The notes under the pieces were generated by a model, which was given only the letters and a program-made list of their open reading frames with translations, was not told the origin of the DNA and searched no databases. The translations under genes and the position numbers were made by a program. A stretch of DNA of 64,000 bases from a virus (taxonomy: Duplodnaviria; Caudoviricetes): positions 1 to 64,000 of IMG/VR virus record IMGVR_UViG_3300036868_000046; one strand, written 5' to 3'. Positions 14,260 to 57,043 of this stretch are shown piece after piece. Position 1 is the first letter of the stretch. Each line of letters starts with the position of its first letter.

Positions 14260-14308
14260 CGTTCCACGTAGCAAAGTGGTCCGACCTGGGGCATACGATC
14301 CGCCCCCA

Positions 14309-20926: not shown

Positions 20927-21872
20927 TATCCGATGCGGCGGCGCCCTTCTTGAAGATGGTCTTCCAGATTGCGGCGCTCACCGGGATGAGCAGCGTCGCG
21001 GCGATCTGCAGCCACTTCTGCAGTTCGGCATGCTGGAGCGTGAGGACGCCGGCTCTGAGCTGGTTGATCACGTCCGCTTCCCACTGCGTGTAGGGGAGCG
21101 TCGGATCGGAGAGCGTGTTCTGCCCAGGGTCGTCGGCGGCGCCGAGCGAGCCGAGGGGGCCCAGCGTACGACGCGGGATCGCCAGTCCGAAGCTCGTCGA
21201 CACCCCCGAGAGCGCCCTTGGCCGTCTGTGTGCCTTGCGGTAGTACATGGGAGCCCTTCAGTTGGGGACGTTCGGCGACAGCGAGCCGTAGTCGTCATCG
21301 CCGATGATGTCCGACAGGTCGGAGAGGTCGTCGGTCGCGGATGTGGGAGGCGCTGCGGTGGGGGGACGGGGAGAGGGGGTGCTCATGCGCCCCGCGTCGT
21401 AGGCATCGTTGTAGGTGTACTCGTTGGGGTCGTCGGCCACCGGCCGCAGCGCCCGCATCTGGAGATGCGGAAGCCCGAGGTCGGCGTTCGGGTCCGCGGC
21501 CGGCAGCTGGGCGTTCGGGTCCGCGAGCATCCAGCCGAGGGACGGCACGTAGAGCTGGATGAGGTTCTGGATGGCGGCGATCGCGGCGCCGACCACGATC
21601 GGGGTGTGGTACTTCTCGAGCCACTTCCACTTGTGGGCGAGCAGCCACGCGGATAGGAACGCTCCGACGGCCGCAGCCGCGCCCGCGTGCTTGCCGATCG
21701 ACGGTGCCCGTTTCGCCACCTGCTCGGTCGCGACCTTGGTGATGAACCGGGTCAGCGCGAACCCGGCGAAGCCGGGCCCGATGAACTCGGCCAGGTCGGT
21801 CATGAGCGGGGGGTTATGTCGTGGCGCAGCCGCGGCCCTGCCGTATCTGCGCTTGAGCCTGGTTCGAGCCAT
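20913..21872 (-). CDS. Two putative virion membrane proteins (20913-21248, 21258-21872)
   Basis: Basic N-termini (MYYRKAHRRPRALSG; MARTRLKRRYGR...HNPP) and hydrophobic helices. Confidence 0.6.
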
Positions 21873-21918
21873 CCCCCCTATCGTACCCCCAGGACGCCAG
21901 GAGGCACAAGGTCGTCGG

Positions 21919-22272
21919 GTCTCAGCGGAGGGCCGCTGAGCAGCCCCAGGGCAGTTCCGCTTGCGGTCTCAGGCTCCATCACGAGCTCTTGCTAGTCTCA
22001 GGCACACCTGAGCGGGTCCCTACGACGCTATGGTCTCAATCGAGGTTGAGCGTATCCGAATATCACCCGTCTCAGCACCCGTTCGTGGCCTGAGCTCGTG
22101 CATGTCTCAGGGTGCTCGGCTACGGTGTGTCTCAACCAAGCGTTGAGCAGCCACGATACCTGATGTCTCATGGTAATCACCTGAGCAGTCCCAGCCACGG
22201 ATGACGACTATTACCTATTCGATTGTCACGACCGCTCCTCTCATGTCTCTGACTATGGGCAGAGCGCATCCC
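21919..22272 (-). repeat. Mini-array C: about 9 minimal repeat hairpins
   Basis: GTCTC starts at 21919, 21966, 21995, 22033, 22069, 22104, 22129, 22165 and 22245. Most close with TGAGC; the last has a compensatory CTCTG/CAGAG stem followed by GCATCCCT. Confidence 0.75.
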
Positions 22273-22322
22273 TACGGGCCCAGAGATACCAGCGCGCGCG
22301 CCACCTGACAAGCACGATCCGG

Positions 22323-24812: not shown

Positions 24813-24844
24813 GGATATACCTCCACTTGGGCTTTCGGGGCCGT

Positions 24845-26341
24845 CTACCGCCACACGGGGCGGCCGAGCTGCTCGCCCGGCTCGTCGATGAAGTGGAGGC
24901 TTCCGAACGCGTCCTGGATCTCGGAGAGCTCGACCTCGTCCGGGTCCATGTCATCCACGAGGTCGGCGCGCGACAGGTTGAGGAGCTGCTCGCGGTTCGC
25001 GACGAGGAGCTGCTTCTTGAAGTCTTCCAGCGACAGGCCCTGGTAGCCCGGCATGCCTCGGAGCGCGCGCCAGACCGCAGCGATGAACACCTTGTCGCTG
25101 CCGTAGCGACCCATCGCCCGGCCGCTCGGACCCTTCCGCTCTCGCACCGAGGGCAAGACCGACAGCACTGCCTGCGCCAGATCCCCGATCGAATGGGGGG
25201 ACGCCGTGGCGACGATCGTGCGCGGCACTGGCGGTGGCGATGGCGGCGCAACCGGCGTGTCCACGACGAAGTGATACGTCGCGATGTCGTCGTAGGTCTC
25301 CGACTCGGCGACCTCGTTCGGGTTCATCGCCGCCACGAGATCCGCGCGCGCCAGCACGAGCTGCCGAGCGCGGTGCGCCTTGGTGAGCTCGTGTTTGAAC
25401 TCCGGGAAAGCCATCCCGCCCATCCGCGGATCGTTCGCCAGGACGCGCCAGATCGCGCTGATGAACACCTTGCGATCGCCGAACCGGCCGCGCCAGCGTC
25501 CATCTGGATCGGTCTCGGCGCGGATGGTCGGCATCACGGAGCGAACGATCGCGGCCAGCGCGGCTGGATCGGGTCGCGCGCGCCGGACCGGAGCTGGAGC
25601 TGGAGCCGGCGAGGGCGACAGGACCGCTTCGCGAAACGCCTGGATGCCGGCCGGCTTGGCCAGAAACCTGGCGTTCTCATCCTTCGCGTCCTCGTTGCCG
25701 GTGAAGAACAGGAACCTGTCGACGTACTGCGGGTAGTTGTCGCGCACGTAGTGGAAGAAGTCGATGCCGCTCTTGTCGCCGATCACGTCGACGTCCGAGA
25801 CGATCAGCACCGGCTCGAGGAACCGCAGGTTGCCGATCATGCCGTCGACGTTGTCCGAGACGACGACATGCGCCCCCGGGATGATCTTCTTGATCATCCG
25901 GGTCGTCGACTTCTGCAGCGCCGGCTCGTCCTCGAGCAAGAGGACCGTGGCCTCCCCCGCGTTGCGCTTGACGGGGTTTGGATGGATGCCACCCCGCGGC
26001 TCCGCGCCACCCTCCCATCCGACCTCGATGTCGTCGCCCCGGCGTTCGACCTCGACGGTGAACGTCGGGACCGAGATGTCGGCCCGCGCCGCGGCGTCGA
26101 CGTAGGAGTCCGGCGCTTCGCCGATCGCGAGCTGGACCAGGCACTCCCCAATGTCCACGCCGCCACCGGCGCGCCGCAGCCGGTGCGCGACGTCGAGCAC
26201 GCCCTCGTGGTTGGCGAGCTCGTAGAGGTCGGCCAGCTCTCCAGCCGCCTCCACGATGGCCTTGGGCGCCCGACCGACGCCTCCGATCTGGTCACGCCAG
26301 ATCGCGGCGGCCATCTCCAGGATGAGTGCCTGTCGCGTCAT
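24845..26341 (-). CDS. Receiver (REC) domain protein with two C-terminal GRFG.xKVFI..RADLV repeats
   Basis: VLLLEDE...LIVSDVD...FFTG...FLAKP supplies all receiver catalytic positions; the C-terminal domain is duplicated. Confidence 0.8.
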   Translation of the reverse strand: MTRQALILEMAAAIWRDQIGGVGRAPKAIVEAAGELADLYELANHEGVLDVAHRLRRAGGGVDIGECLVQLAIGEAPDSYVDAAARADISVPTFTVEVERRGDDIEVGWEGGAEPRGGIHPNPVKRNAGEATVLLLEDEPALQKSTTRMIKKIIPGAHVVVSDNVDGMIGNLRFLEPVLIVSDVDVIGDKSGIDFFHYVRDNYPQYVDRFLFFTGNEDAKDENARFLAKPAGIQAFREAVLSPSPAPAPAPVRRARPDPAALAAIVRSVMPTIRAETDPDGRWRGRFGDRKVFISAIWRVLANDPRMGGMAFPEFKHELTKAHRARQLVLARADLVAAMNPNEVAESETYDDIATYHFVVDTPVAPPSPPPVPRTIVATASPHSIGDLAQAVLSVLPSVRERKGPSGRAMGRYGSDKVFIAAVWRALRGMPGYQGLSLEDFKKQLLVANREQLLNLSRADLVDDMDPDEVELSEIQDAFGSLHFIDEPGEQLGRPVWR

Positions 26342-26344
26342 GCC

Positions 26345-26845
26345 TCAGGCATCCCGGGCGCGGTTGTCCTCGATGACGAGCCGCTTCTTGCAGAGCGTGG
26401 CGCCGGTGTGCACCTGGCCCTGCACGTGCGCGGCGCGCCCCGCCTCCCAGGTGCACTGGAACGGCTCGATCGAGATCCGCCCGATGGAGGCGATCTCGAC
26501 CAGCTCGCGCGCGCCCGCGACCGCAATGCGCTGGCGCATCGGGTTGAGCGCATGCGGCGCGAAGTCGATCGCCTTGCGGTCTCCCCGGACGGTCAGAAGC
26601 TTCTGGCAGCCGGGGCAGACCAGGTGGACCTTGAGCGGTTCACCCGGGATCGCGTAGACGTCGAGCGTCAGGAACGTGTCCTTGTAGACGACCACGACCT
26701 CCTGCTTGCTCGAGGGCCCGGCCGCGCCCAGAAGCCCAGGGTGACCTTCCGGGCCCGGGGCATCGCCGGCCAGCTGCACGCACTGCCGGCTCGTCCCGAG
26801 CAGCGACTGCACCTGGGGGTCCTGTAGGTCGATGGTGACTGTCAC
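26345..26845 (-). CDS. Hypothetical zinc-binding protein
   Basis: CPGC and CTW...C motifs; GTG start overlaps the upstream stop. Confidence 0.6.
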   Translation of the reverse strand: MTVTIDLQDPQVQSLLGTSRQCVQLAGDAPGPEGHPGLLGAAGPSSKQEVVVVYKDTFLTLDVYAIPGEPLKVHLVCPGCQKLLTVRGDRKAIDFAPHALNPMRQRIAVAGARELVEIASIGRISIEPFQCTWEAGRAAHVQGQVHTGATLCKKRLVIEDNRARDA

Positions 26846-29800
26846 GACGCCGGCTTTCTGCGCAGGAGGATGAACGCGATGGCGGCCACCGCGGCGCCAC
26901 CGATGACCAGGGTGCTCGTGCTGATGCCCTGGGCATTCAGCGCCGTCTGGAGGTCCCGGTTGGCCTGGTCGGCGGCGCCCGCCTGGCGCTGGCCCGAGCC
27001 GTAGAACCGCAGGACGGATCCGACGCCCCCCAGAATGTCGTCCCAGGTGCTGCCGAAGCCGGAGTAGCCGGCCCGGCTGATGAGGGTGTCCTTGACGTAC
27101 GGCATGGAGATCACCTCCGCGTGAGGAGCACGACGAGCAGCACGGCGCCGCCGGCGAGCGCGATCTTGGTGGTCGTCGACATGCCCGGCGCGGCGACCGG
27201 CGGCGCCGTGGGCGCCGGCGGCGACAGGATGGCGCCGATCGCCGAGCCGAGCCGATCCCAGGTCGATGGGCAGCGACCTGCGCCGTTCGGGTCACCGTAC
27301 GTCGATCCGTCCGCGTTGAACGTCACGTAGCCGCCGTCGGTGGTCGCGCAGTAGTTGCCGGGCTGCCGGTACGAGTCACAGGCCGGGATCGAGGCGCACG
27401 GCGTCTCGTCGGTGAACGTGGTGCCGAGGCCCAGGAGCGCGGGGCGCCTGTACTTGTTGTAATACGCCATCTTATCGACCCTTCTTCGTGAGCAGATAAT
27501 ACGCCAGTCCGCCGCCGGCCACGAGCAGAAGCAGCGATCCGGCGCCGCCGGACTCGGTCGGCGGGGTGGTCGAGGTCGACGTCGAGCTCGAGTCCGGGAA
27601 GAACAGATCCCGGAGCTCGTTGAACCAGGGTTGGTCGTCCGGCGGCGCGCAGACCTGCCCCGGGCGCCGCCAGGGCGAATCGGCCGGCAGCTCCGAGCAG
27701 TCGACGCGGTTCGGCCCCGTCGACCCGACGATCGTGCTTCCGCCGTCGTCGAACGTGCCATCGTCCTGACCTGGGTGGGTGACCGGGCCATCGCCCATCG
27801 GGCGGATGTAGCTCATGACGTCCTCCGCAAGAGCAAGTAGCCCACGACGGCCGCCCCGCCGAGGAGGAGCACGGTCTGCAGGGGGAACCCGCTGTCCCCC
27901 GATCCGTCGGGCAGATCCACCGGGGGCGGTGGTGGCCCGGAGGCCACGGTCGGCGGGCGCTGGACCGGCGCCGATCCGCCACCGCCCCCTCCACCGCCAC
28001 CCGAGGACGTGGCCGGCGGCGTGCTGGCCGGCGGTGGTGGCGTGGTCGCCGGTGGCGTGGTCGCCGGCGGAGCTTGCGCCGCGATGGACTGGGCGAGCTG
28101 GCCGCTCAAGTTCCGCGCCGCGCCCCAGATGCCGCCGCTCAGGCGGCGATCGGGGCCCGGCCGAACCGGCACAGGCGTCGGGGCCGGCGTGGACCCGGGG
28201 CGCGTCGGAACCCGCGCGGGCGTGGACCCGGGGCGCATCGGTACGGACGCGCCGCCCGGTAGCCGAACCTGCGACCAGAGTCCCAGCGCTCTGTGCTTGA
28301 CGTACGACATCAGCGCCGCCCGCGGTGGCCTCCACCGCCGTGGTGGTGCCGCCCCCCGCCTCCGCCCCCGCGCCAGTTCGGGCGGAAGCCAGAGCCCCAG
28401 CCGGGTTGCCAGAACTCGACCGGGCCGTAATCGACCACGTCCGGCTCGTCGAGCTCCGGCGCCGCTGCCTGGGCGGTCAGCGGCTGCATGACCGGACCAC
28501 CGCTCTGGTTCACCGTCGAGGCGCCGCTCGATTGCCCGGTCGACGCATCGTCCTTCTTCCGGATGAAGAAGTACCAGACGGCGATGCCGCCGCCGATCCA
28601 CAGAAGGGTCGAGTTCTTCATTTGGCCGCCTGTCCTTTCGCGATCTCGTAGCCGATCCACATCGGCAGCCCGATAGCGACCGCGATGATCGTGGGTAGCA
28701 CCCAGACGTGCTCTTGAGAGTACACGTAGGCGCGGAGCGCCGGCACCGCGCGGCGAAGGCCGATGCCGCCCGTCTGGCTCGGATCGTCGGGCGTCTCGTT
28801 GCAAGCCGCCGGGGTCTCGCCGCGGTCGATCGACTTGAGCTGGCCGACGCGGCACACGACCTCGTTGAGGTACGGATCGGCCAGGATGTCGGAGGCGGCG
28901 CCGATGACGCCGCCGATGTCACCCATGCCTGCCCGGATCGGGCGACGGCGGCGAGTCCTGCCATACGACATCAGGCGCGTCCCTTCTTCGTCCAGCTGTG
29001 GACGAGTTCCTTACCGCCGGCCTCGCGCCAGAAGAACCAGGCCAAGAACGTCAGGCCGCCGACCTTGAGCCAGAACCCATAGTCCGTGCAGGCCCCCGCT
29101 TCGATGCACGCCTTTTCCTCGCGGTCCTTGGCCACGTCGGCAGCCGTGCCGATCGCCGTGGTGATGACGAGCAAGAGGCCGCCGACGATGAGCACTGGCC
29201 AGGACAGCCAGGGCGTGCCGCCTGCGAACATCCCGCCCGTCGCTGTCGGGCCCGACACCGCCGCGGTCGACCCGTAGATCGCCAGCTGCGCGAGCTGCAC
29301 CGCGCCCTGGGGGTTGAGCGACAGGTCCGCTTCCGGCAGCGTCTGGCCCTGCATCACGACCGAGAGCAGCGCTGAGAGCTTGTTCGCCAGGTCCTGCTCG
29401 ATCGCTGGACTCCGCGCGCCCACGACCACCTGCTGCGCGTACGCCGTGGGCTTGCGCGTCTGCAGCGTGCCGGCCAGCACCTGGTCGTTGATGCTCCGGT
29501 ACTTGAGCCAGGACGTGAGCGATCGCCGCATCTTGTCGAGCTCGACCTGGGCCTTCTGGACCTCGGCCGTCGTGATGGTCGTCGTCATTGGCTCACCGGC
29601 CCTTTCTTGAAGGGTTCAAGACCAGCCAGGCCGCGACGAGGCCCACGCCGATGACCCAGATCGGGACACCGCCCGCATCCCCGCCCGCTGGTGGGAGACC
29701 CAGCGAGTCGGCGAACGCACCGATGGTCTGGGTCACATCGGCGAGGCGCATCGTCACGAAGTCGACCGGCGAAGCGAACCCGGCGTTGGCTGCCACGATC

Positions 29801-30066
29801 GCCGCCGCGGATCCTGCGTCGTGGAACTGGTTGTAGGAGTCGGTCGCCCGGCGCAGGTAGATCGTGATCGCGACCGTCGCCAGGTCGAGCGGCACGGTGC
29901 CGCTCGCCAGGAACGGCGTCGTGACGTACTGGTATCCGCTCGGCGCGGACGTGCCGAAGCGGTTCACCTGGCTCGACAGGATCGCGACCGGATCCGTCGG
30001 CGCAGGCGCAGCGTCGCCCAGGCCACAACAGCCCAGCGACCCGTGCGCTGTGCTCAGGTACCCCAT
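26842..30066 (-). CDS. Cluster of small virion membrane proteins (26842-27108, 27111-27470, 27472-27816, 27813-28310, 28310-28621, 28618-28971, 28971-29588, 29593-30066)
   Basis: Tightly coupled ORFs. Most begin M-x-Y...[LMF]G and end in a TM helix plus a basic tail (e.g. LLRRK, LTKKGR). Confidence 0.75.
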
Positions 30067-30692
30067 CACATGTTGACGATGCGGTATCCGATGAGGTCGA
30101 CGTGGAGGATCCCCTGCGTCGGCGGCGTCGGCGACCCGTTGAACGTGATCGCGTTGTAGATCGGCACGAACTGGATCGCCGCGTTCGGCGACCAGAGTGT
30201 CGGCACGGGACACGGCACGATGTTGTCGGGCCGCGACAGCACGGGGCCCCGGGGGTTGTTCTGCATGAACCGCTGGGAGCCCGCGTCGTTGAGCTCGTAC
30301 ATGATGTCGATGATGTCCGTGTCGACGACCTGATCGGGGAGCGGGAAGGTCGACACCGGGCGCCACCGACCGAGGTTGGTGGCGGTGGACGGCAAGGACG
30401 GACGCCAGAGCGCCATCGGGTAGTGCGTCATGACGAACGGTCCGTCCTGCGACACCTGGATGATGATGGGCGTCCCGCGCTGCCCGGAATCGTCGGTCGT
30501 GAACGTGATCTCGCCCGACAGGATCATGTCGATCCGCCGACCGGGCGTGGCGTCGAGCTGCTCCTGGACCGATTGGGGCCGCTGCTGCAGCTGGTTGAAC
30601 GCGTCGGTGAGATCGTTGAGCTGCTTCTGCAGGTTGCGGATCACGCCGGCGTGCTGGCGAAGTGCGGCTTGCTCGTTAGCGCCCATGAACAC
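30066..30692 (-). CDS. Candidate second capsid protein (single jelly roll-like) with an N-terminal coiled coil
   Basis: Beta-rich, about 200 aa, ends LHVDLIGYRI, immediately after the candidate MCP; the fold is inferred. Confidence 0.45.
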   Translation of the reverse strand: MFMGANEQAALRQHAGVIRNLQKQLNDLTDAFNQLQQRPQSVQEQLDATPGRRIDMILSGEITFTTDDSGQRGTPIIIQVSQDGPFVMTHYPMALWRPSLPSTATNLGRWRPVSTFPLPDQVVDTDIIDIMYELNDAGSQRFMQNNPRGPVLSRPDNIVPCPVPTLWSPNAAIQFVPIYNAITFNGSPTPPTQGILHVDLIGYRIVNM

Positions 30693-30784
30693 GGACTCCC
30701 ATCGAAGAAAGGGGTTTCCTGGCTCTCGCCAGGACCGTTCGCGGCGCCCCGCGGGGCAGCGCCGGTGGTGAGATCACCTCGGGA

Positions 30785-31360
30785 CTACTGGACGTCGCGG
30801 GTCTGGAGGCCGTCCAGCATGAAGCCGATGACCTTGATGTCGTCGGTCGCGCCGGAGTTGAGGCCGTCGAGAGCCGACACCGAGCCGATCGGCGTGAAGT
30901 CAGCGCTCGCCGCGAAGTTCTGGCGGACCGGGACGACGATCGGGCGGGCCAGCTTCAGGATCGCCGGCTGCTCCGGCGTACCGTTGTTGAAGATGGAGAC
31001 CGTCGAGTCGAAGCCCCAGACGCCACCGCCCTGGGGGAAGTACCAGGCCGGGGCCTGGAACATCGGCTTGTTGCCGACGGTCAGCGTCCAGAACAGCTGG
31101 CTGGTCACGTTCATGTAGTTCTGGCGGCGGTTCGTGCCGTCGAAGAACATGAGGCACCGCAGCGCCAGGATGACGTAGGTCTGATCGGAGGCGAGCTGAC
31201 CTGCGGTCTGCAGGTTGGTCAGCGCCGTGTTGCCGATGTTCGCGTTGCCGAACAGCTTGGTGCTGTTCTGGATCGCGGGAGATGGGTCACCCGACGTACG
31301 AACGAGGGTATCCCAGAACGGCTGATGGAGCCGCTCCTTGTAGCCGTGAAGACGAGGCAT
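30785..31360 (-). CDS. Candidate major capsid protein (single jelly roll-like), 191 aa
   Basis: QPFWDT...LFGNAN.GN..LTNLQTAGQL...PIVVPVRQNF...FMLDG. It has its own RBS and intergenic space, sits at the centre of the virion block, and has paralogs at 56386 and 57044. Confidence 0.55.
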   Translation of the reverse strand: MPRLHGYKERLHQPFWDTLVRTSGDPSPAIQNSTKLFGNANIGNTALTNLQTAGQLASDQTYVILALRCLMFFDGTNRRQNYMNVTSQLFWTLTVGNKPMFQAPAWYFPQGGGVWGFDSTVSIFNNGTPEQPAILKLARPIVVPVRQNFAASADFTPIGSVSALDGLNSGATDDIKVIGFMLDGLQTRDVQ

Positions 31361-31469
31361 GGTCGAGATCCTTCTGATGCAATCGTTTTGGTTCGGCGCG
31401 CTGGGGACCATTCCGCCAACGCAACCAGGCTGGGGCCTCCAGCCACATCTCGGATCTCGGGGTCAGCGA

Positions 31470-32933
31470 CTACCGGCTGAAGATGCCGGTGTAGAGCTGG
31501 TTGGGGTTGTCGAACGCCGTGCCCGCGCCCGGAACGGCCTTGGTGAACGAGCGCGCGGGGACCGGGGTGAGGAAGTTCTGCGTCGGGACGCGCTTGACGA
31601 GCGCGCCGGTCGACATGCCGCCCAGCAGGTCGTTGCCGAGCTCCTCCTCGATGCCGAGTTCCTCCTCGAGCCCGAGCTCCTCCTGCACCCCGTCGCTGCC
31701 GACGGCCAGGTAGTCGGAGAGCGTCATGCTGTCATTGATGGGCGGCACCGCGCCGACCGCCAGGTAGTCGCCCATCTGGACGTAGTCGCTCATGCCGACG
31801 AGCGACTTGACGCTCGCGGGCGCGAACGCCGACACCAGGGAGTCGAGCGCCGACAGCGCCGCGCCGATGAGCAGCTCGTTCTTGTGCTTGGCGATGATCG
31901 ACACCTTCCCGGACAGGAAGTTGAGCCCCAGCATGGTGCCGACCGCGAGCACGGGAGAGGTCAGCGACCCCAGCGCGGACACGCCCGGGATCATCGGACC
32001 GATCTTGCTCGCGACCAGCCGCGTGCCGTACATGCCGGCGAGCACCGGCACGGCCCGCTTGGCCAGATCGAGGATCATGTTGCCGGGGTTCCGGCGGTAG
32101 TGCCGGCGGCGCGGGTTCCGGCGATAACGCCGACGCGGGTTCCGGCGGTAGTGCCGGCGCGGGTTCCGACGATAGCGCCGACGCGGGTTCCGACGGTAGC
32201 GCCGGCGCCGCCCCGGATTCATGCGGATCGTGCGCGCGCCCGCTGAGGTCAGCATCACGACCGTCTTGGCGGTCTTGCTCTTGCGAGGACGCGCCTTGCG
32301 GGGACGCGCCTTGCGGGGACGCCCACGCTTGCCCTTGCCCCTCGCCTTGCGGGGACGCCCACGCTTGCCCTTGCCCCTCGCCTTGCGACTGCGCGCACCG
32401 CGCCGCATTTGCGCATGGCGCCTGGTGCGGCCCATGCGACCGAACTTGCCGGACGCCCGACGCGCGCGCCAGCGCGCCTTGGCCTTGCGCGACAGCTTCG
32501 CGCGGGTCTTGGCGCTCATGCGCCGCTTCTTCGCCATGCTGGATTTCCTTCCGGCCTTCCGGCCCTTGCGTGTTCTGCGGCGAGCTGACGCCTCGGCCGC
32601 GAGGATCAGACGGTCTCGTTTCCGCTGCCGGTGCATCGGATGCTTGCGCGGCGCCGGACGCGCCACGCCACGCCGCGACGGTCCGAGGTCATCCCAGATC
32701 CGAACAACCCGACGCTTCTTGCTTCGGTGCTTGGCGGCATGCCTGTTGATGCTCGCCGCCTTCTTCCGCACGCGCTCAAGGATGCCCCCGGTCGCCTTGC
32801 GCATCCTTTTCCGATGTGAGAGCAGCGCGGCACCCGCGAGCGGGCGCCGCCGCTTCTTGGCCGGATTGCGGATCACGGCACGGCCGGAAACCCGCATCCC
32901 GCGCCGGCGACCGTTGACGTAGAGGATGGGCAC
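31470..32933 (-). CDS. Arg/Lys-rich protamine-like core protein with a C-terminal membrane-associated region
   Basis: About 280 aa of extremely basic sequence including 6 RRR(H)YRRNP repeats, followed by hydrophobic helices and an acidic tail. Confidence 0.75.
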   Translation of the reverse strand: MPILYVNGRRRGMRVSGRAVIRNPAKKRRRPLAGAALLSHRKRMRKATGGILERVRKKAASINRHAAKHRSKKRRVVRIWDDLGPSRRGVARPAPRKHPMHRQRKRDRLILAAEASARRRTRKGRKAGRKSSMAKKRRMSAKTRAKLSRKAKARWRARRASGKFGRMGRTRRHAQMRRGARSRKARGKGKRGRPRKARGKGKRGRPRKARPRKARPRKSKTAKTVVMLTSAGARTIRMNPGRRRRYRRNPRRRYRRNPRRHYRRNPRRRYRRNPRRRHYRRNPGNMILDLAKRAVPVLAGMYGTRLVASKIGPMIPGVSALGSLTSPVLAVGTMLGLNFLSGKVSIIAKHKNELLIGAALSALDSLVSAFAPASVKSLVGMSDYVQMGDYLAVGAVPPINDSMTLSDYLAVGSDGVQEELGLEEELGIEEELGNDLLGGMSTGALVKRVPTQNFLTPVPARSFTKAVPGAGTAFDNPNQLYTGIFSR

Positions 32934-33165
32934 GAGATCAACACAAGAGGCACGAGATCACTTAAGTCAACCCCCCATCGTCGGTCGGCGGTCGTTTTTC
33001 GCAGGGCTTGACGCTCTCATCGGCGTCGATCAGCGCGTTCAGGCGCTCCGCCTTCGCTCGGAGGTCAATGTACGAATGCAGTGCGCGTACGCACGCGGCC
33101 TCGGTACAACTGCCGCGTCCTGACCCACTCCCATCAGCGATGCGTCTCGGTTTCATAAGCAAAAC

Positions 33166-34132
33166 TCAACCCTTTCCGTGTGGCGGCCGTCGAGTGGACG
33201 CCAGGCGGTCGTAGAACCGTTCCAGAACCGTGCCAATCTTCTCGTTCGCGTCGGCAGCCGTGCGGCTGATGAACTCCATGTTGGCCGTGTACTCGCGCCG
33301 CGCCGTGTTCTCGTTCTCGCGCGCCGCCTCGAAGATCTCGCGGATCGTCGTGATGTGGTCCTGCAGCGCCTGGCGGTGCTTGGCCTCGAACTCGAGCCGC
33401 AGCTCGTTCGCGATCTCCTCGCGCGAGCCCGAGAGCTGCGCGCGATCGACCGCCCACTGCGCGCGCTCCTTCGCGACCTCGGCGTCGTGCTTCTGCCGGT
33501 CAGTGTCGAGCTCCGCAATCCGGTTCGTGAAGTGGCGAAACAGGTAGGCGATCACCCCCGCCAGGGCCGTGATTGCAAAGAGCAGCGCGGCGACGAGGTT
33601 GTTCGGGATCCCATCCGCGGATGGGGGTTCAACCATCGATACCTCGACCGAACACACCGAGCCCACCGCCCCAGATCATCGCGAGCACCTGCTTGCGCGA
33701 CTGGATGATCAGCAGGCACTTCCCGTCGGGGGTCGTGTACAGATCTGGATAGGGCTCACGCGACTCCGCTACGACCTTCTTCCCATCGACGTCCTCGAAC
33801 GCGAATCCAAGGCTCTGCCCCAGCCGGGTCAACGCCGGCACGTCCCGGAACCGGGCCGGGACTTCGACGCGCGGACCGTCTCCATCCGCCGTGTAGCAGA
33901 CGACCCCCGCATCGTGCTCGTGGATGTAGTCGACCGGCCGCTTTGGCTTGCGCAGCGTCGCCGGATCCACCTTGCCGGAGCGATAGGTCACATGGAGGTT
34001 GCGGCCGGCGCGGTTCAGGTGCGTGGGGATCCGGAACGACGCGGGGAACTCGCCGATGCGGCGCGGCTCGTAGCGATGGAACTCGACGTACTTGTCGACG
34101 GCCTCCTCGGCCTCTTCGGGGATGCGCTTCAC
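33166..34132 (-). CDS. TM plus coiled-coil protein (33166-~33640) and a hypothetical protein (33629-34132)
   Basis: Open frames in the operon direction. Confidence 0.6.
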
Positions 34133-34136
34133 CGCC

Positions 34137-36828
34137 TCATCCTTTCGGCTTCAGAAACTTGAACGCGATGAGCGCGCCGATCGCCGCCAGACCGACCCAC
34201 TTGTACTTGTCGTACAGCTCGGGCAGCGACGCCGCCACCTTCAGAACGTCCTCGCCCACGAGCAGCGCCGTCGCGCCGATCGCCTTCACCGCGGTCCAGG
34301 CGACCTCGAACCCGCTCTGAAACGCCGACAGTGCGCTCAACCACCAGGGATTCAGGCATGCCGCCACCGAGGCGGTCTGCATCGCGTCGGCGCCAGTCTG
34401 CAGCGAGGTGATGACCCATTGCTTGAACCCCGGCGCGTTGACGAGTCGGATCCCAGATTGCTGGGCCTGCTGCGCGGCGTGCGTGTAGTCGAGCGACCGC
34501 TGCCCCACGGCGAAGAGGCTATCCGCCGCGGCGTGCAGATCATCGCCGGCGGTCGTGAGATCGGCGAGCACCTGGTCGATGGTCCCCTGCGCCTTGACCA
34601 CCGCCGCCATCACCGTGGTGACCCCCGACAAGAGCTCGTCGGGCGTATAGAACCCGGTCGTGTTCCAGTTGTTCGACAGGTCGTCGATCTTGTCGCGCAG
34701 CGGCGCGAGCGTGGCCGTCGCCTGCTGCTGGCACTGCTGGCGCTCCCAGTACTGCGGATCCATCCAGTTCCCGTCGGGCACGTCCGCCATCGATCCACGC
34801 TTCATGTAGGTCATCGCAGCACCTTCCAGGCGACCAGCGCGATCGCTCCGTAGAGCAGCAGGCTACTCGGATCCGAGAACAGGTCCGCGCCATCCAGGCT
34901 GGCGATGCGACCCTGGGGGAGCTCGCCGCTCCCCACCTTCTTGGCCCCCAGCGGCAGCTTCCAGGCAGCACGCGTCGGCGGCGCCCCCTGCGGACGCCCG
35001 TCATCGCCGAGCACCTCGCGCGGACGCGGCGGAGATCCGGCGTGCGTGCCACCCGGCCCAGGTCCGTCGTAGTAGTCGTAGACCCGGCGCGTGTAGTCGT
35101 ATACGGAGTACCGACCCATCACCGCCGCTTCTTTTTGAACAGGAACTTCCAGGCGAGGAACGCCCCGACCCCGAGCGTCACGTAGCCCCCGGGCACCGAG
35201 TCCGCGATGTCCGACAGCGCCGCCGACGCCGACCCCGTCTGACAACCGCACGTGCCCGAGCACGAGCAGTTCGCCCCCAGACCGGACATCGCCGCGCGCG
35301 TGACGCCGATCGGCTCGGGCGCCCCCGGCCGCGGCAAGAGCGAGCTGCCCTCGAGCGTGGAGCCCTGGAGGCTCGTGCCCGAGAGCGTGCCGCCTGACAG
35401 GGATCCGAGCGCCACCGTATCGGCCGCGCGTGATTGGTGGGGGACGTTGCGCTGCCAGCTGAGCAGCGGCGCCCCACCCCGTTGATAGGCGAACTTCATG
35501 GACATTGCCTCTTCTGGCCGAAGCCTTGGGCCACCGAGATCGGGACCGCGACCACCGGCACGAGCCGCCCCGCCAGGCCGTAGAACATCGCCCAGAGGAT
35601 GGAGCCCGTCCGGCGATAGCCGTGGAACGTGAGCGCGATCGCCGATGCCGTCTTCACGCTCGGCGACGTCGCGATGTCATGAAGGTTGAAAGACGACGTG
35701 GTGGTCGTCCCATCCCCCAGCTGCTGGCGGGTGTACATCACTTCCTCTTCTTGCTCTTGCGGAGCACCAAGTAGCCGATCGTCCCTGCCACCCCCAGAAT
35801 TGCCAGCTTCTCGACCGGGCCCAGGGTGGCGAACGCGCCGATCGCGCCGGCGTCCGGCGAGGCCACCGTCTTGCCGCTCTTGGTCACGATGGTGGGCACC
35901 GTGATCGCCAGCGGGCCCGACACCTCGGCCGGGGCCCCTAGCGAGTTGGCCAGCGCCATCACCTGCGCCGCCAGCACGTCGACGTCCGGCGCCACCCCCA
36001 TGCAGCTCGAGGTGTCGCCCATGACCGAGCCGCTCGCGATGCCCTGCACCTGGTGAAGGAGCGCCAGCGTCTTGGGCCCCACCGCGCCGTCCGTCACGAT
36101 CTTGCCCCACCCGCGAACCTGCGCCACCCGGTTGAGCTGCCCCTGGAACGCGCGCACGGCGTTGAGCGCGGGGAAGTTCTTCGCCTTGCACACCCCGCCG
36201 ATGCTCGAGAAATCGTCCGCGGACGTCGTGGTGCCGCTCGCGGTCTGGTTCACCGCGTCATCGGGCTCTGCGTCCTCGGGCGCCAGGATGCCCATCCCGA
36301 AGTAGTCGAGAACCGATGCCCACCACGGTTGCCCATCGTCGCCGAGCGACTGGTAGACCACCGGAGTCCTCGTGTAGGTCATGGCTTGGTCTTCTTCCAG
36401 AAGTGGTAGGCCACGATGCCGGCAATGGCGTAGGTCAAGAGACCACCCGGAACGTCGGGCAGGAACCCCAGGCCGCTGGTCGCCATCGGCGCCGAGTCAT
36501 CTGGTACGCCCGAGGACAGCCGACGTCCCTGATCGCGCGCCGCCAGGACCGCCACGATGTTGTCTGCCCACGACATGCGCTCCCAGTCCGGTCCGACGAT
36601 CTGCCGCAACGCAGATGCCGTAGGCGGGTCCAGGTGGCCGCTGTTGGGCACGCTGGTCGCGCCCATCCGGTAGAGCTCGCGCTGCAGCTGTCGCACGAGC
36701 AGGATGATCTGCGCCGACTTCGGATCCGTCGTCGCGGGAGCGATCATCATGTACGGGATGATCATCGTCGCGCTAAAATCGCCGATGCCGAGCGACGTCA
36801 GAAGGTTGCGTGATGTGACCTCGCTCAT
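34137..36828 (-). CDS. Cluster of virion membrane proteins (34137-34814, 34811-35119, 35119-35505, 35496-35738, 35738-36382, 36379-36828)
   Basis: C-terminal TM plus basic tails. 35738-36382 (DGAVGPKT) and 36379-36828 (SGHLDPPT) carry peptidoglycan-binding-like motifs. Confidence 0.7.
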
Positions 36829-38567
36829 GGCTCCGACCTCTTCCGCGAAGAGAGCAGGATCGCGACCGCCGCGACGGCGCCCCCTGCGATGAGTAGGGTC
36901 GTCGTCAAGGACGACGACGAGGGCGGCGGGACCGGCGCCGGCGGGCGCTGACCGCACGCCTGTTGCGCGAGCGCTGCCCCCGCCGCGCCCACCTGAGGGG
37001 GCGCGCCCGCGGCAGTCGCCGCCGCGGCCGACGCGGCCTGTCCTTGCTGACCACTCAGCGTGCTGTTCAGGACGTCGCACGCGAGGTCGGCCAGGTCCCG
37101 CACCGTGTCCACCACGGCATTGCGCACCGGCATCACCACCGTCGCCGGGATCTGGACCAGCGTGTTCCAGATCGACCCCAAGACGCCCGGATCCGGGATC
37201 CTCGACAGCCAGACCTTCAACGCCAGCGGATTGGTCGCCGAGCCGACCTGGTACGGGTCGATCGGGTCGAGCATGACGTGCATGACCAGGTCTTCGTTCG
37301 TCGTCGGATGCTTGGTGCGAACGAGCGGATCGATGCCGGTCAGGAGGTACCACAGGGTGTGCTGCCGGACCGGCGTGTCCATCGTGATGCCCATCGCGTC
37401 GAACCAGTTCCCCCAGTCCGGCGACGAGCCCTTGCCCTCCTGCGCGATCATGTGCGGATACGTGGTGCCGACGTCCGTCTTCCCAGCAGCGTCGTGGGCC
37501 TCGACGAGCCGGTCGTGAAGCCATCCAAGGACGTCCGCATCGACCGGCCGCATGACGACATTCGCCGAGGTCGTCGTTGGCCGCCAGTTCGGATCGGGCG
37601 ATGGATACATGAGGTCTGGGGTGCGGCCAGGGCCCGCCGAGCTCGTGGACCCACCGAACGCCCAGACCCGGTTCTGGAGCCGGTCATCGAACTGGAACGG
37701 CCCGACGTAGAACGCGCCGGTCGGGCGGTTGTCCCGCACCTCGGTCTGCGACGGGTCGACCGTCGCGGCGCCGGGTGGCGCCCCGCTCGCGCAGAACGGC
37801 ACGTCCTGCGCGCCTGCCATGGTCCGGGTCCAGTGACCCGGAATTCCCGCGGAACCGTAGACCCAGGAGAACCCGGGGCTCGATTGGCAATCCGCGGTAT
37901 CTCCCAGAACTGCCATGCAGCCATAGCACCCCAGGCCCAGGAGAGATTTTGCCTGGGGTGCCGCGCGTCGCAGACCCGTGTTGATGACCTCGGCCGCAAG
38001 CCCCGTCGACATCGCGCGGCTGATCGCGAGCGGCATGGCCTGGCCGGGGTTCATGCCCTGCGCGATGTACCGCTTCCAGATGTCCTGCGTCCTCGTCCAG
38101 AGGGAGCGGTCGATCTTGTCCATGATCTGCTTGAGCGCATCCTGCCGCTTCTTGGGCGGGACGCTCTTGACCCTGGACAGGATGATCTGCGCCGCGCGCT
38201 GGCCGTAGTCCTCGTAGGGCGCCGGCAGCTCCGCGTCGCCGAACGCCGAGAGCATCGTGATCTCCCGACCGCCGCCCGGCATCCGCGCCGAGCGCACCAC
38301 CTGCGGATGCTGGTTGAGCCAGTGCGGGATGCGCGGCCCGGCGTACGTCCCACCGGGCGCCCACTTCGTGGTGTAGGTCCCCTGGCCGTAGCCTTCGTCC
38401 ATCACGTATTGCGGCACCACGTAGCCGCCCGTCCCGACGTCGGGGTCGTCGTAGGTGCCCCGGGGCACCTGCTTGGTCACGAACGCCCGGCGCTCGAGGC
38501 CCTCCTCGTCGACGTTGCCCGGAAGGCAGTACCCTGGGTCCCAGGGCTTTGGCAGGTTGTAGGCCAT
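36825..38567 (-). CDS. Large tail-anchored virion protein
   Basis: Start MAYNLPKPW; internal LLGLGC..C..VLGD; C-terminal TM plus RKR. Confidence 0.65.
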   Translation of the reverse strand: MAYNLPKPWDPGYCLPGNVDEEGLERRAFVTKQVPRGTYDDPDVGTGGYVVPQYVMDEGYGQGTYTTKWAPGGTYAGPRIPHWLNQHPQVVRSARMPGGGREITMLSAFGDAELPAPYEDYGQRAAQIILSRVKSVPPKKRQDALKQIMDKIDRSLWTRTQDIWKRYIAQGMNPGQAMPLAISRAMSTGLAAEVINTGLRRAAPQAKSLLGLGCYGCMAVLGDTADCQSSPGFSWVYGSAGIPGHWTRTMAGAQDVPFCASGAPPGAATVDPSQTEVRDNRPTGAFYVGPFQFDDRLQNRVWAFGGSTSSAGPGRTPDLMYPSPDPNWRPTTTSANVVMRPVDADVLGWLHDRLVEAHDAAGKTDVGTTYPHMIAQEGKGSSPDWGNWFDAMGITMDTPVRQHTLWYLLTGIDPLVRTKHPTTNEDLVMHVMLDPIDPYQVGSATNPLALKVWLSRIPDPGVLGSIWNTLVQIPATVVMPVRNAVVDTVRDLADLACDVLNSTLSGQQGQAASAAAATAAGAPPQVGAAGAALAQQACGQRPPAPVPPPSSSSLTTTLLIAGGAVAAVAILLSSRKRSEP

Positions 38568-38578
38568 GTAGGTTCCCT

Positions 38579-39193
38579 TCAGGCTGCGATGGGCCAGGAG
38601 GACGAGTTCTTGATACGAGACAGCATCTGCGAGGTCTTCTCCGCGGCCACCGGATCGAGCACGATCATGCAGCGCGTGCGCGGCTCCATCGCACGCGTAA
38701 ATACGTGCGAATACTGGACTTGGCCGTTGTAGACCATGTTTTGAAAGGCGCAAGTCACAAACTCCGCCCGTCCACCCACCGCCGTCACCGCCGCCGCCAG
38801 CCAGGTCGCCATGTCATCGCAGTCGAGCGATGGGCGGTGACCGGCGAGGATCTGCTGGCTGATGATGTAGGGCGCTCGCACGAGCTCCGTACGACGCGGG
38901 TCGCGCATGTACCGCGTGCGCTGCAGGAGGAAGTGGTAGAGCGCCTGGTACTCGCTCATGTAGTCCTTCGAGTCGAGCCACTCGCACACGCTCTCGGCGA
39001 GCTGCCGCGTCGCGAAGCTGTTCGCGTCGTCGAGCACCGCCTTGCGCATCACCGCGATGGTCTGCGGCGCCCCGTTGTAGCCGACCCGGCTCGTCGGCAC
39101 CTGGTCGGGGGTCCAGAACATCCGCGCCCGCCCGTACCCCATGCCGGAGAGCGGGGGAATCGGAGAGCGGGCGGGGTGTCGATGGCGGATCAC
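38579..39193 (-). CDS. Transglutaminase-like cysteine protease (candidate maturation protease)
   Basis: LDCDD (Cys), YSHVF (His) and VLDP (Asp) triad, plus Y.RDP..TELV. Confidence 0.8.
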   Translation of the reverse strand: MIRHRHPARSPIPPLSGMGYGRARMFWTPDQVPTSRVGYNGAPQTIAVMRKAVLDDANSFATRQLAESVCEWLDSKDYMSEYQALYHFLLQRTRYMRDPRRTELVRAPYIISQQILAGHRPSLDCDDMATWLAAAVTAVGGRAEFVTCAFQNMVYNGQVQYSHVFTRAMEPRTRCMIVLDPVAAEKTSQMLSRIKNSSSWPIAA

Positions 39194-39244
39194 GAGACGA
39201 CTGTCCTTGGCTGGACGACATCTCGGACCTCGTTCACCGACCCG

Positions 39245-40966
39245 TCATCCGGTGCCGGTGAGCACCTCTCCCACCTTGCGAAGCCAGTTCTTGCCAGCCT
39301 GCGACATGAGGGGTGAGGTACCAGGCAATTTTGCCACCTTGCTCATGAACAAGTCAATGCCGTGCTCCTGAACCCACCCCATGACCTCCACCGGCATGTG
39401 TGGCCTGGCGCTCTGGGCCACGATCTCCGGCTCCATCCGGTTGGAGAACGCGTTCTCCAGCAGCGACAGCATGGTCTTGATGGTGTCCGGTTCGATGGCG
39501 GGCACCTCGATCTGTGCCCCCTCGCTGGTCGTGACGATCTTGGGCTTGCGCCGCGCCGGCACGACCTGGTTGCCCACCTGGATGAACTTCTGCCCGCTCT
39601 GGTCCTGCACGACCCGCGGACGCATCGTCGCGGGGTTCTGCATCATGCCCTCGGGCATGCCCGGCTGGCCGCCGCCCACGCCGGGAATGCGGCTGATGAT
39701 CTTGCCGATGCCCTCGACGGCCGTGGGGCTCGTGAACGCCTCGACCACCTTGTCGATGCCGGACTTCTCGCCATCGCTCGACCCGATCAGGTCCTTGAGC
39801 TTCTCGACCTCCTCGATCGAGTCGATGATCGATTTCTCCTTCTTCTCGCGGAGCTCCTTCACGTCCTGCCTGAGCTCCGTGTTGTCGCGGGTCAGCCGAT
39901 CGATCTCGGCCTTGAGCGTGTGCGCCTGGACCTCCGCCGTCGTCTTCGCGGCGCTGAACGCTGTCTCGTGCGACAGCCGCATCGCCGCGATCTCGCGCTC
40001 GTAGCTCATCTTGATCGACGCCGCGGCGTCATCGTGCGAGCGCCGCATGGCCTCGATCGTTCGGTCGTGGCGATCCTCGATGCGCTTGATGTCCTGCGTG
40101 AAGCCTTCCCGGAGCTGGCGGAGCTCGGATTCGTGCTGCGCGCGGAGCGCCGTCAGGCGGGCGCTGTCGCCCGTCATGAGCGTGTCCAGCATCTTGTCCC
40201 GGAACGGGTCGTCCGGCGGCTTCTGGTTGCGCAGCGCCGCGTTCTCGGTCTGGACCGCGTCGAGCTGACGTCGCAGCGCGGCCATCGCCTCGCGGTTCTG
40301 CTCGAACATCATCCGGATCGCGGGATCGATCTCCCGATCTGGCGGGCGCTCGTTCTTGATCTTGAGCTGCTCGGCCATCAAGTTGAACGCCGCCTTGGCG
40401 ATGGTCGGTTCCTCATGGCTCATCGTCGGCGCGACGGTGGTCGGCTCGGCGGTCAGCGGAAGATGGTCGAGCCGCGGGTCCCCGGCGATGGTCAGGTGGC
40501 GATGGTTGACGAACTTCCACGAGCCGCGCTCGTTCTGGCGCATCACCTTGATGTGGTACTTGCCGCCGCCGAATTCCCTCTGGATCTGATCCTCGTCGGG
40601 AAACTCGTCGTAGCTGCGCAGGTGACCCTCGGTCGAGACGTCCTGCCCCGTCTTGGGGTTGCGCAGGTGCTTTGGCTCGGTCCGTCGCAACGCCACGCGA
40701 AAGACGCCGCCATCCGCGCTGAGGACCTGCAGCCAGTCACGCAGACCGGACTCCTCCTCGTCGCGAATGCGCTTCATGTTCGGCGACAGCTTCTCGCGGG
40801 CCGGCTCCTTGGCCGTCGGCGGAGCCGCCGGCGGAGGCGTCGTCTCCGCCGGCGCGTCCGGCACCGACTCGAGCGCGGTCTCCGAGTCAGGGACGGAGCT
40901 CGGCTCCGGCTCGTCGTCTGGCGGCTCGACGGGCTGCTCGACCTGCTTGACGGTGGCGCGCTTCAC
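39245..40966 (-). CDS. Large coiled-coil protein
   Basis: Long heptad-rich central region. Confidence 0.7.
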   Translation of the reverse strand: MKRATVKQVEQPVEPPDDEPEPSSVPDSETALESVPDAPAETTPPPAAPPTAKEPAREKLSPNMKRIRDEEESGLRDWLQVLSADGGVFRVALRRTEPKHLRNPKTGQDVSTEGHLRSYDEFPDEDQIQREFGGGKYHIKVMRQNERGSWKFVNHRHLTIAGDPRLDHLPLTAEPTTVAPTMSHEEPTIAKAAFNLMAEQLKIKNERPPDREIDPAIRMMFEQNREAMAALRRQLDAVQTENAALRNQKPPDDPFRDKMLDTLMTGDSARLTALRAQHESELRQLREGFTQDIKRIEDRHDRTIEAMRRSHDDAAASIKMSYEREIAAMRLSHETAFSAAKTTAEVQAHTLKAEIDRLTRDNTELRQDVKELREKKEKSIIDSIEEVEKLKDLIGSSDGEKSGIDKVVEAFTSPTAVEGIGKIISRIPGVGGGQPGMPEGMMQNPATMRPRVVQDQSGQKFIQVGNQVVPARRKPKIVTTSEGAQIEVPAIEPDTIKTMLSLLENAFSNRMEPEIVAQSARPHMPVEVMGWVQEHGIDLFMSKVAKLPGTSPLMSQAGKNWLRKVGEVLTGTG

Positions 40967-41903
40967 GGTCCCTCGTCTTCGTCGTCCTCGGGATCTTCTT
41001 CGTCGTCCTCTTGGGGCTCCTCTTCCTCTTCGGACTCCGCCCCCTCTTCGGGCTCATCGAGCGTGATGTCCTCGAGCAGAGACTCGGCCTTGGACGCCAG
41101 GTCCATCCAGACGCCCACCGCGGCGACCGCCTGGGGGTCGTGCGCCACGCGTTTCTTGAGGTCGAGCATGAGCGCCCGGCCGGACACGATGAGCGCGGCG
41201 AACACGGCCGCACTGTCCGCGTGCAACACGTCCTCGCTGCCCTCGGCGAGCGCCGCGATCGTCGCGTCGATGTCGTCGATCTCTTCGAGCATCGACCCCA
41301 CGAAGGGGAGAAGCTCGTCGGCAAGGAACTGCCGGACGTCCGAGGCGGGCACGAGCGGCCCATTGGGTAGCCGCGCGACCACGGCTGCGAAATCGGTCTT
41401 GAGTTGGTCAATCATGGGGTCTCCTTGGGGGTCAGTGTCTCTTGAACGGAGCGATCGAACTCATCCGCCTCCGCACGAAGCTCGGCGTAGGCCCTGTCCC
41501 ATGCTTGAACGAGCGCGGTATGGGACCTGAACTGCTTGGGGTCGGCGCACTCGTAGCGGTTGCACCGAAGGACCGGCGTGGATCCCAGCGGGATCTCGAT
41601 GCCCGGCGTGGGGTAGCAGTAGTGGTGATGCTCCTCGTGGAACACCGGCAGCGCCGTCACCACGGTCCCATCCGGCGTCACACGCGCGAACCGCGACGCC
41701 GGCAGTCCATGGACCGGGAGGAGCACGCCGCTCGGCGTCGCAGCGTCTGCCTGGATGATGAAGTGATGGTAGTGCGAGCACCCGGCGGTGCAGAGCGACG
41801 GCCGCGGCCGGATCACGTCGCTCGACGAGGCGGTTGGTTGATGGTCTGGCGGCAGGTCGTCATCGTCATGGAGGTCTAACCTTGGCACCCTCCCATCATG
41901 CAC
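40963..41903 (-). CDS. Two hypothetical ORFs (40963-41415 with an acidic tail; 41412-41903 Cys/His-rich)
   Basis: Coupled open frames. Confidence 0.55.
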
Positions 41904-46848: not shown

Positions 46849-47170
46849 CACGTGGGGTGTCGTCCGGTTCGCGGATGGCCGCGCCGACGTGCGCGCCGCC
46901 GTCGAGCGCGTCGCCGAGCTGTATCGCATCGGCGGAACGCCAGAGCAGTTTCGCGCCGCCGCCGCCGACGACGCCAGGGCCGCCGACGACGCCAGGGCCG
47001 CCGACGACGCCAGGGCCGCCGACGACGCCAGGGCCGCCGACGACGCCAGGGCCGCCGACGACGCCGTCGCCAGGGCCGTCGACGCCGCCAGTTTCGCCTG
47101 GAACTGGGACGCCGCCTGGGTAGTGGCAGCGCGTGACAAGCTCCTTGAACTGCTCGGGGATTGCCCATGA
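46817..47170 (+). pseudogene. Start-less fragment of the Ala-rich gene at the window start, with a 5.8-copy 18-bp tandem repeat GCCGCCGACGACGCCAGG (46961-47065)
   Basis: 144 bp with 4 mismatches to 2-145; fused out of frame to the end of ORF 46411-46848. Confidence 0.65.
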
Positions 47171-57030: not shown

Positions 57031-57043
57031 TAGCGTTCTCGGG

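Follow-up and report, generated by a model that had tools for sequence, protein, structure and literature searches.

A candidate lineage of large bacterial viruses with predicted jelly-roll capsid proteins, many membrane proteins and no recognisable packaging motor

Introduction

The 64,000-nucleotide stretch of viral DNA examined here (the window; positions 1 to 64,000 of IMG/VR record IMGVR_UViG_3300036868_000046, catalogued under Caudoviricetes) carries a long minus-strand operon of putative virion genes, and raises the question of what kind of particle these genes build and how the genome enters it. An earlier note, made from the sequence alone, had read 26842-41415 as the virion module of a large, tailless, temperate virus with an internal membrane, placed it in a single-jelly-roll lineage of Sphaerolipovirus-like architecture, and proposed a genome above 64 kb and a Myxococcota-like host. 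Based on gene content, predicted folds, conservation and the lack of a P-loop motor, all computed in the present study, we consider it likely that the window belongs to a complete 78.7-kb circular double-stranded DNA (dsDNA) virus of bacteria that is tailless, has a jelly-roll shell and an internal membrane, and packages its genome without a motor.

Genome and gene prediction

The window comprises bases 1-64000 of a single contig of 78,782 bases, the first and last 125 of which are identical. This exact terminal overlap indicates a closed, circularly assembled genome of ~78.66 kb, in agreement with the predicted size above 64 kb. The GC content of the genome (66-67%) is so high that raw lists of open reading frames (ORFs) were uninformative, and genes were therefore called with a codon-usage model, giving 134 genes, to which one (27813-28310(-)) was later added based on the third-codon-position GC content (GC3) of its frame. 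The terminal overlap splits one gene, f134/g001 (window 2-376 (+); genome 78350-78781), of which g074 (46889-47170) is a paralogue with 55% identity. All called ORFs of at least 250 aa and many smaller ones were compared with Pfam, and twenty proteins (the ten largest of the operon and ten more) with PHROGs. Genes recognised among those searched in the 14.8 kb beyond the window comprise a Dam methylase, a DUF5131 gene, a sugar epimerase/dehydratase and glycosyltransferases. Rfam at gathering threshold gave nothing in 19-43 kb.

Predicted capsid and core proteins

Four genes are central to the proposed particle, together with a fifth that may condense its DNA:

30785-31360, minus strand: g050, candidate main capsid protein, predicted single jelly roll, 191 aa
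30066-30692, minus strand: g049, putative second jelly-roll virion protein, 206-208 aa, a second capsid or vertex protein
56386-57604, plus strand: g093 and g094, two diverged paralogues of g050 (hhalign)
31470-32933, minus strand: g051, protamine-like, candidate DNA-condensing protein, 487 aa, directly upstream of g050

The adjacent g049 and g050 correspond to the two beta-rich proteins of ~200 aa reported in the earlier note, and are real and conserved genes, with GC3 values of 0.88-0.90. Homologues of g049 form 531 clusters at 90% identity, and more than 500 homologues are 62-83% identical to it; those of g050, whose starts correspond to residue 18 of the longer ORF, form 275 clusters at 50% identity. 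Both folds, proposed at the outset as the test of a single-jelly-roll lineage, were predicted to be jelly rolls. In a comparison with 48,161 solved chains, each was most similar to capsid proteins of icosahedral viruses with an internal membrane. The g050 prediction, made from a 48-row alignment, has a mean local confidence (pLDDT) of 92.6 and a global fold score (pTM) of 0.86. Its Foldseek E-values are weak (about 5e-3) and the list of matches is almost wholly composed of viral jelly-roll capsid proteins, with 'Capsid protein VP4 [SPV1]', from Sulfolobus polyhedral virus 1 (SPV1), among those in BFVD. The predicted architecture of g049 is a long N-terminal helix followed by a beta sandwich, and its top structural matches are capsid proteins of SPV1, HHIV-2 and HCIV-1. 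SPV1 outscored every helvetiavirus protein in the structural comparison, and PRD1 P3 gave only a weak Foldseek match, to one barrel.

No mutual sequence homology was detected between g049 and g050 by hhalign, nor between either of them and g030/g033, g041, g053, g096, g097 or the g039 domains. The g093 family aligned with a g050 family built without g093 and g094 rows over 190 columns (hhalign 98.8%, E 1.1e-16). The most conserved gene is the 191-aa g050, not one encoding a 300-400-aa protein, and profile searches gave no capsid candidate of double-jelly-roll size. Residues 1-285 of g051 contain 120 Lys/Arg, 5 Asp/Glu and five YRRNP repeats, while residues 286-487 are hydrophobic; only residues ~280-487 are conserved in relatives.

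Packaging genes

Neither Pfam nor PHROGs identified a terminase, portal, HK97 capsid protein, tape measure or FtsK/HerA/A32 ATPase in the proteins searched, and no gene of tape-measure size is present. The earlier note had recognised no such tailed-phage genes in the window and left room for them, or for a packaging ATPase, just outside it; the searched genes there include none. Its lack of a Walker A motif likewise holds for the window and for the entire genome, as a six-frame motif scan of the 78.7 kb returned no credible Walker A, the matches lying in off-frames or corresponding to AHDAAGKT in g060. The latter is the only such motif within a long genuine gene and, being unconserved in relatives, was not accepted as a P-loop.

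Comparable results were obtained for three of four whole relatives, described below. No ORF of at least 100 aa in G003 or G004 has a Walker A, and G002 has a single one, located within its basic protein. PF01580 is absent from five relatives, compared with matches in 12 of 14 control genomes. The complete 75-86-kb genomes G000 (the present virus), G003 and G004 encode no credible P-loop nucleoside triphosphatase (NTPase) of any kind, whether helicase, ATPase-type partition protein or terminase, and their replication must depend entirely on the host.

Late operon and membrane proteins

The virion operon lies on the minus strand and runs from 41888 down to about 20913, or to 19478 if three small downstream genes and a 236-aa protein are included. 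Its genes are tightly packed, with 4-bp overlaps at 13 of 30 junctions and distances of at most 12 bases at 21 of 30. The order of transcription is g064, g063, g062, g061, g060, g059-g055, g054, g053, g052, g051, g050 and g049, followed by eight small proteins, g041, g040, g039, g038 and g037:

39245-41888, minus strand: g062 (573 aa, coiled coil), g063 (acidic) and g064 (Cys/His-rich), the operon start
38579-39142, minus strand: g061, transglutaminase-like Cys-His-Asp enzyme, 187 aa, candidate virion protease
36825-38567, minus strand: g060, largest tail-anchored membrane protein, 580 aa, core gene found in all four whole relatives
34811-36828, minus strand: g055-g059, five tail-anchored membrane proteins with 4-bp gene overlaps
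33166-34814, minus strand: g052 (N-terminal transmembrane (TM) segment and coiled coil), g053 (167 aa, soluble, core) and g054 (tail-anchored), based on TM predictions
26842-30069, minus strand: g042, g043, g044, the new gene 27813-28310 and g045-g048, eight small membrane proteins with a C-terminal anchor and basic tail or an internal TM segment, syntenic in relatives
24845-26845, minus strand: g040 (498 aa, variable, internal duplication) and g041 (166 aa, Cys-rich, core)
22323-24812, minus strand: g039, putative vertex spike or fibre, 829 aa, with two tandem beta domains of ~95 aa, a region of ~22-aa repeats and a Gly-rich C-terminus
20913-21803, minus strand: g037 (M-Y-Y leader) and g038 (membrane protein)

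A hydrophobic C-terminal anchor (15-residue stretch) with a basic tail is present in 13 of the 26 proteins encoded at 20913-39142, compared with 5 of 109 elsewhere (Fisher p 1.2e-7). About six further operon proteins have N-terminal or internal hydrophobic segments, which brings the membrane proteins to a total of ~19. An M-x-Y N-terminus is similarly concentrated in the operon (9 of 25 proteins versus 2 of 109 elsewhere, p 3e-6) and recurs in the later-found 27813-28310(-). This 165-aa protein (frame GC3 0.84) starts with MSYVKHR, ends with a TM segment and RRTS, and belongs to the set with leader and tail anchor; the start of its gene overlaps the stop of the gene upstream. Among the proteins that begin with M-x-Y(-x-R/K) is g061, the Cys enzyme, and the leader is often followed by a Gly-rich motif (LGDG, MGDG, LGLG). 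It may mark these proteins for sorting or cleavage.

Nearly all operon proteins lack a match in Pfam and PHROGs. There is no match for g060 in either, and its counterpart in relative G005 covers only 15% of its length. The coiled-coil protein g062, present in four of four whole relatives, has only low-complexity coiled-coil matches in Pfam and only unnamed viral clusters in the ESM Atlas, and is a possible scaffold. A soluble protein, g053, is likewise retained in all four (38-61% identity), as is g038 (21258-21803(-)). Over its first ~90 residues, g038 is similar to the beginning of the hydrophobic half of g051 (BLASTP E 4e-4), and the two proteins could possibly share a membrane-binding module. 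Peptidoglycan-binding-like motifs occur in g058 and g059 (Pfam PG_binding_1 E 0.0036 in g059), and g040 has only a weak receiver-domain match. The spacers 31361-31469 and 39143-39244 (-) have the word UCCGAGAUGU in common, at the foot of a hairpin, and the former spacer folds far better than shuffled sequences (z -4.0).

The two N-terminal domains of g039 share mutual homology (hhalign 98.2%, E 6e-14). Residues 1-195 alone are conserved in relatives, whose homologues range from 288 to 1015 aa with a variable C-terminal part, and this pattern is that of a capsid-anchored receptor-binding spike. A sub-threshold ESM Atlas lead (0.88) linking the N-terminus to an XepA-like small protein was not used as evidence. 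The catalytic triad of g061 (C108, H146, D163) is invariant, and two of the seven family members match Pfam Transglut_core (best E 3.5e-6); the homologue in G005 is 46% identical to g061, and those of the other three whole relatives are 74-78% identical.

Enzymes and accessory genes

A second conserved late cluster is located at 56386-59976, outside the minus-strand operon, and is followed by lysis and integration genes and preceded by a ParB-like gene:

57642-58373, plus strand: g095, probable lytic transglycosylase with a C-terminal TM segment (PHROG transglycosylase E 5.5e-4)
58375-59976, plus strand: g096, g097 (M-S-Y start) and g098, beta-rich late proteins, vertex or minor capsid candidates, conserved in three to four relatives and syntenic with g093-g095
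60551-61390, minus strand: g100, endolysin with GH25 muramidase and PG_binding_1 domains (Pfam E 5e-13 and 3e-10)
62506-63549, minus strand: g105, tyrosine integrase (Pfam Phage_integrase E 1e-15), 55-56% identical in three relatives
53026-54378, plus strand: g087, ParB-like core gene (PHROG ParB-like partition protein E 1.2e-9), in four of four relatives

The motif HESGG...GYLQV of g095 is invariant, its homologues are 66-69% identical and one of them matches Pfam SLT (E 0.015), which points to a probable membrane-anchored lytic transglycosylase. Profile searches of g061 and g095 against PDB sequences gave nothing useful, and no family matches were found for g096-g098.

Every item in the earlier inventory of the virion module was confirmed. 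Its basic core protein (g051) and fibre (g039) are both present, and its count of more than 15 small TM proteins compares with ~19 here, 13 of them tail-anchored. The module is wider than was drawn, spanning about 20913-41888 plus the cluster at 56386-59976. The transglycosylase and integrase that were listed with it also exist, the former as a probable assignment, but both lie outside 26842-41415.

Several further genes are of note. A dual-specificity protein phosphatase domain (59973-60554 (-), Pfam DSPc 8.5e-10) occurs in four of four whole relatives and is unusual for a bacterial virus. Two small beta-rich paralogues with 51% identity (15899-16300 (+) and 19119-19475 (+)) flank a CRISPR region. 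Encoded near them is a tailspike-like protein with a beta-helix (14276-15745; Pfam Beta_helix 9e-11, PHROG tail spike 5e-7). The two paralogues may be part of a second receptor-binding complex. A sugar-modification cluster at genome 71.2-77.0 kb (L010 7168-13042) encodes an NAD epimerase/dehydratase that continues into a long fused C-terminal extension, a protein with a weak match to GT1-type glycosyltransferases and one that appears methyltransferase-like by eye, with no Pfam match. This cluster may serve virion-protein glycosylation or host-surface modification.

Relatives, host and lifestyle

Contigs of this widespread, uncultured family are ~68-92 kb long, and many g049 homologues are found on contigs of 75-92 kb. 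The syntenic block is kept in 16 related loci, comprising nine IMG/VR contigs (seven of 75-86 kb and two shorter) and seven contigs from metagenome-assembled genomes (MAGs), six of which measure 68-89 kb. Four of the five IMG/VR relatives are closed genomes, of 75-86 kb. All four whole relatives have 14 genes in common (g038, g041, g046, g049, g050, g051, g053, g060, g061, g062, g087, g091, g096 and g099). No match was found by tblastn of g049 and g050 against 50,697 GenBank phage records, or of g049 against 72,556 PLSDB plasmids.

The seven MAG contigs were binned with Actinomycetota, Peribacteria, Myxococcales, Gemmatimonadota, Thermomicrobiales, Kiloniellales and Deltaproteobacteria. As these are seven different lineages, host assignment from binning was rejected. 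The occurrence of six virus-sized contigs in unrelated bins, including one of the candidate phyla radiation (Peribacteria), represents viral contamination of MAGs. A search for the bacterial attachment site (attB), using the 451 bases flanking the integrase against 301 genomes from the phylum to which the Myxococcales MAG belongs, returned nothing beyond short, GC-rich matches at chance level and a related virus contig. These results neither favour nor oppose the proposed Myxococcota-like host. A bacterial host is indicated by the GH25 and PG_binding endolysin and the SLT-like g095; operons of bacterial type, a GC content of 67% and the exclusively bacterial MAG bins are further host indicators. 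The host is a peptidoglycan-bearing bacterium, probably of high GC content. The virus, described earlier as temperate, has an integrase and a ParB-like gene and may be so, but the searches revealed no integrated copy; of the seven matches in genome collections, six are on virus-sized contigs.

Comparison with known virus groups

The closest analogue is Portogloboviridae (SPV1; VP4, VP10, PDB 6OJ0), a motor-less group with a nucleoprotein core, and a better one than Sphaerolipoviridae. Shared features are the VP4-type single jelly-roll fold predicted for the capsid candidate, the lack of a detected packaging ATPase, a basic protein (here g051) and a circular assembly. The portoglobovirus particle has an inner lipid layer beneath a T=43 shell in which VP4 forms the hexamers and VP10 the pentamers; the present genome shows a high load of membrane proteins. 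SPV1 has neither an ATPase nor recognisable replication genes, carries CRISPR arrays, and is inferred to assemble its particle around the DNA without a motor (PMC8459092). The basic proteins differ, as g051 combines an arginine-rich region and a membrane anchor in 487 aa and SPV1 VP1 is not so described (PMC8459092). There is no detectable sequence similarity to SPV1, whose genome is 20 kb, compared with 78.7 kb here (~68-92 kb in relatives), and the bacterial wall-active genes contrast with the hyperthermophilic Sulfolobales (archaeal) host of that family. Beyond what is known from SPV1, the present genome encodes a second jelly-roll protein with no homology to the first, together with capsid paralogues, an integrase, an endolysin and Cas12m.

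Helvetiavirae, comprising Matsushitaviridae (Thermus phage P23-77, VP16/VP17), Sphaerolipoviridae and Simuloviridae (the group including HHIV-2, HCIV-1, SH1 and SNJ1), encode two single-jelly-roll major capsid proteins side by side, an arrangement that g049 and g050, which show no mutual sequence homology, may or may not represent. Helvetiaviruses have an FtsK/HerA ATPase beside the capsid genes, in the upstream slot that g051 occupies here, their genomes are 16-31 kb, and no sequence homology was found. Since this ATPase next to two capsid genes defines the group, and none was found here or in the relatives searched with PF01580, the predicted folds bear out the single-jelly-roll lineage of the earlier note but not its 'Sphaerolipovirus-like' label. 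Genome size and host separate the virus from Portogloboviridae, and the ATPase separates it from Helvetiavirae, so it is a member of neither.

Other resemblances are partial. The virus would share with Tectiviridae and Corticoviridae (PRD1, PM2) a bacterial host, a tailless particle and an internal membrane with many small viral proteins, as far as these can be deduced from genes, as well as a vertex spike with an N-terminal capsid-anchoring domain. PRD1 also has a lytic transglycosylase, P7, in its virion membrane. In contrast, PRD1 and PM2 have a double-jelly-roll capsid protein, the ATPase P9 and genomes of 10-15 kb, where the capsid candidates here are single domains of 191 and 206 aa and no ATPase was found. 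Adenoviruses condense their genome with arginine-rich core proteins (protein VII, mu), and their Cys protease trims precursors at Gly-containing sites. By analogy, this core and adenain resemble g051, g061 and the shared leader, although adenoviruses have a eukaryotic host, a double-jelly-roll hexon and the packaging ATPase IVa2, and g061 is transglutaminase-like rather than of the adenain fold. Bacterial viruses resembling portogloboviruses are not described in the literature searched, and the combination of a tailless, jelly-roll shell, a protein-rich membrane and no motor appears to match no described virus family.

Proposed particle and alternative explanations

From these results we infer a lipid membrane, an icosahedral shell, a packaging route and roles for individual proteins. 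The outer shell would be built chiefly of g050, with g049, g093/g094 or both at special positions such as vertices. Beneath it would lie an internal lipid membrane with ~19 virus-encoded proteins, mostly tail-anchored. The double-domain N-terminus of g039 would be seated in the capsid, leaving a swappable tip to bind the host. Instead of being pumped in by a motor, the genome would be condensed by g051 through its arginine-rich N-terminal half. The hydrophobic C-terminal half of this protein would attach the resulting nucleoprotein to the membrane, and shell and membrane would then close around the condensed genome, as proposed for SPV1. The enzyme g061 and the M-x-Y tag, carried by about ten membrane proteins, may act in sorting or proteolytic maturation. 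On entry the cell wall would be opened by g095 and g058/g059, and exit would depend on the GH25 endolysin.

Several observations weigh against this model. The most distant relative, G005, has three ORFs with P-loops (1.8-6.7 kb), which lie far from its capsid block (about 37-50 kb). The absence of a motor was judged from motifs and profiles, and a motor of unknown type or one supplied by the host is conceivable. Jelly rolls are also found in fibres, decoration proteins and carbohydrate binders. To our knowledge, motor-free condensation of a 79-kb genome would be unprecedented for a bacterial virus.

Three alternatives were considered. The genome could be that of a pleomorphic or vesicle-borne element, similar to plasmaviruses, pleolipoviruses or plasmid vesicles, in which DNA condensed by g051 buds in a host-derived membrane and the jelly rolls are spikes or matrix proteins. 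The very high load of membrane proteins and the missing motor would be expected of such an element, and the ParB-like gene and integrase suit an episomal lifestyle. We nonetheless regard it as unlikely, given that g050 is structurally closest to shell proteins from icosahedral viruses with a membrane, that it has diverged paralogues of the kind expected for special capsid positions, and that the endolysin and transglycosylase are in keeping with a lytic cycle of entry to and exit from a walled host. The particle could also be of a true sphaerolipovirus type, with pseudo-hexamers of two vertical single jelly rolls and an FtsK/HerA ATPase that is either host-encoded or diverged beyond recognition. 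This too seems improbable, as the slot upstream of them holds g051 instead of an ATPase, PF01580 is absent in five relatives and no credible P-loop motif occurs in the genome, and the structural ranking of SPV1 above all helvetiavirus proteins and the lack of homology between g049 and g050 both argue otherwise. A tailed phage with unrecognisably diverged HK97, portal, terminase and tail genes, and jelly rolls serving in decoration, fibres or receptor binding, is very improbable, because every known terminase is a P-loop ATPase and no credible Walker A was found in this genome and three closed relatives, Pfam searches of ORFs of at least 250 aa and PHROG searches of twenty proteins gave no structural match (HK97, portal, tail tube or tape measure), no gene is of tape-measure size, and the most conserved one encodes a 191-aa jelly roll.

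Conclusion

A motor-less virus with a jelly-roll shell and an internal membrane is therefore the reading that we favour for the window. We consider it evenly balanced whether it represents an undescribed and globally common lineage, of family rank or higher, with genomes of 68-92 kb, an SPV1-like particle, a protamine-condensed and membrane-tethered genome and no packaging NTPase. Motor-less, single-jelly-roll viruses with an internal membrane have so far comprised one archaeal family with genomes of about 20 kb, and it has been suggested that Helvetiavirae, an entire kingdom of viruses, descend from such a portoglobovirus-like state (PMC8812541). If the reading is correct, the present virus would be the first bacterial counterpart of this state and have by far the largest genome known for the architecture, extending it to bacteria and to a fourfold genome size. 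The membrane-tethered protamine, the N-terminal tag near a Cys enzyme and the capsid paralogues are parts of the model that can be tested. The finding would also imply that default 'Caudoviricetes' labels in virome catalogues conceal non-tailed lineages, and would call into question the view that an ATP-driven packaging motor is indispensable for large dsDNA genomes.

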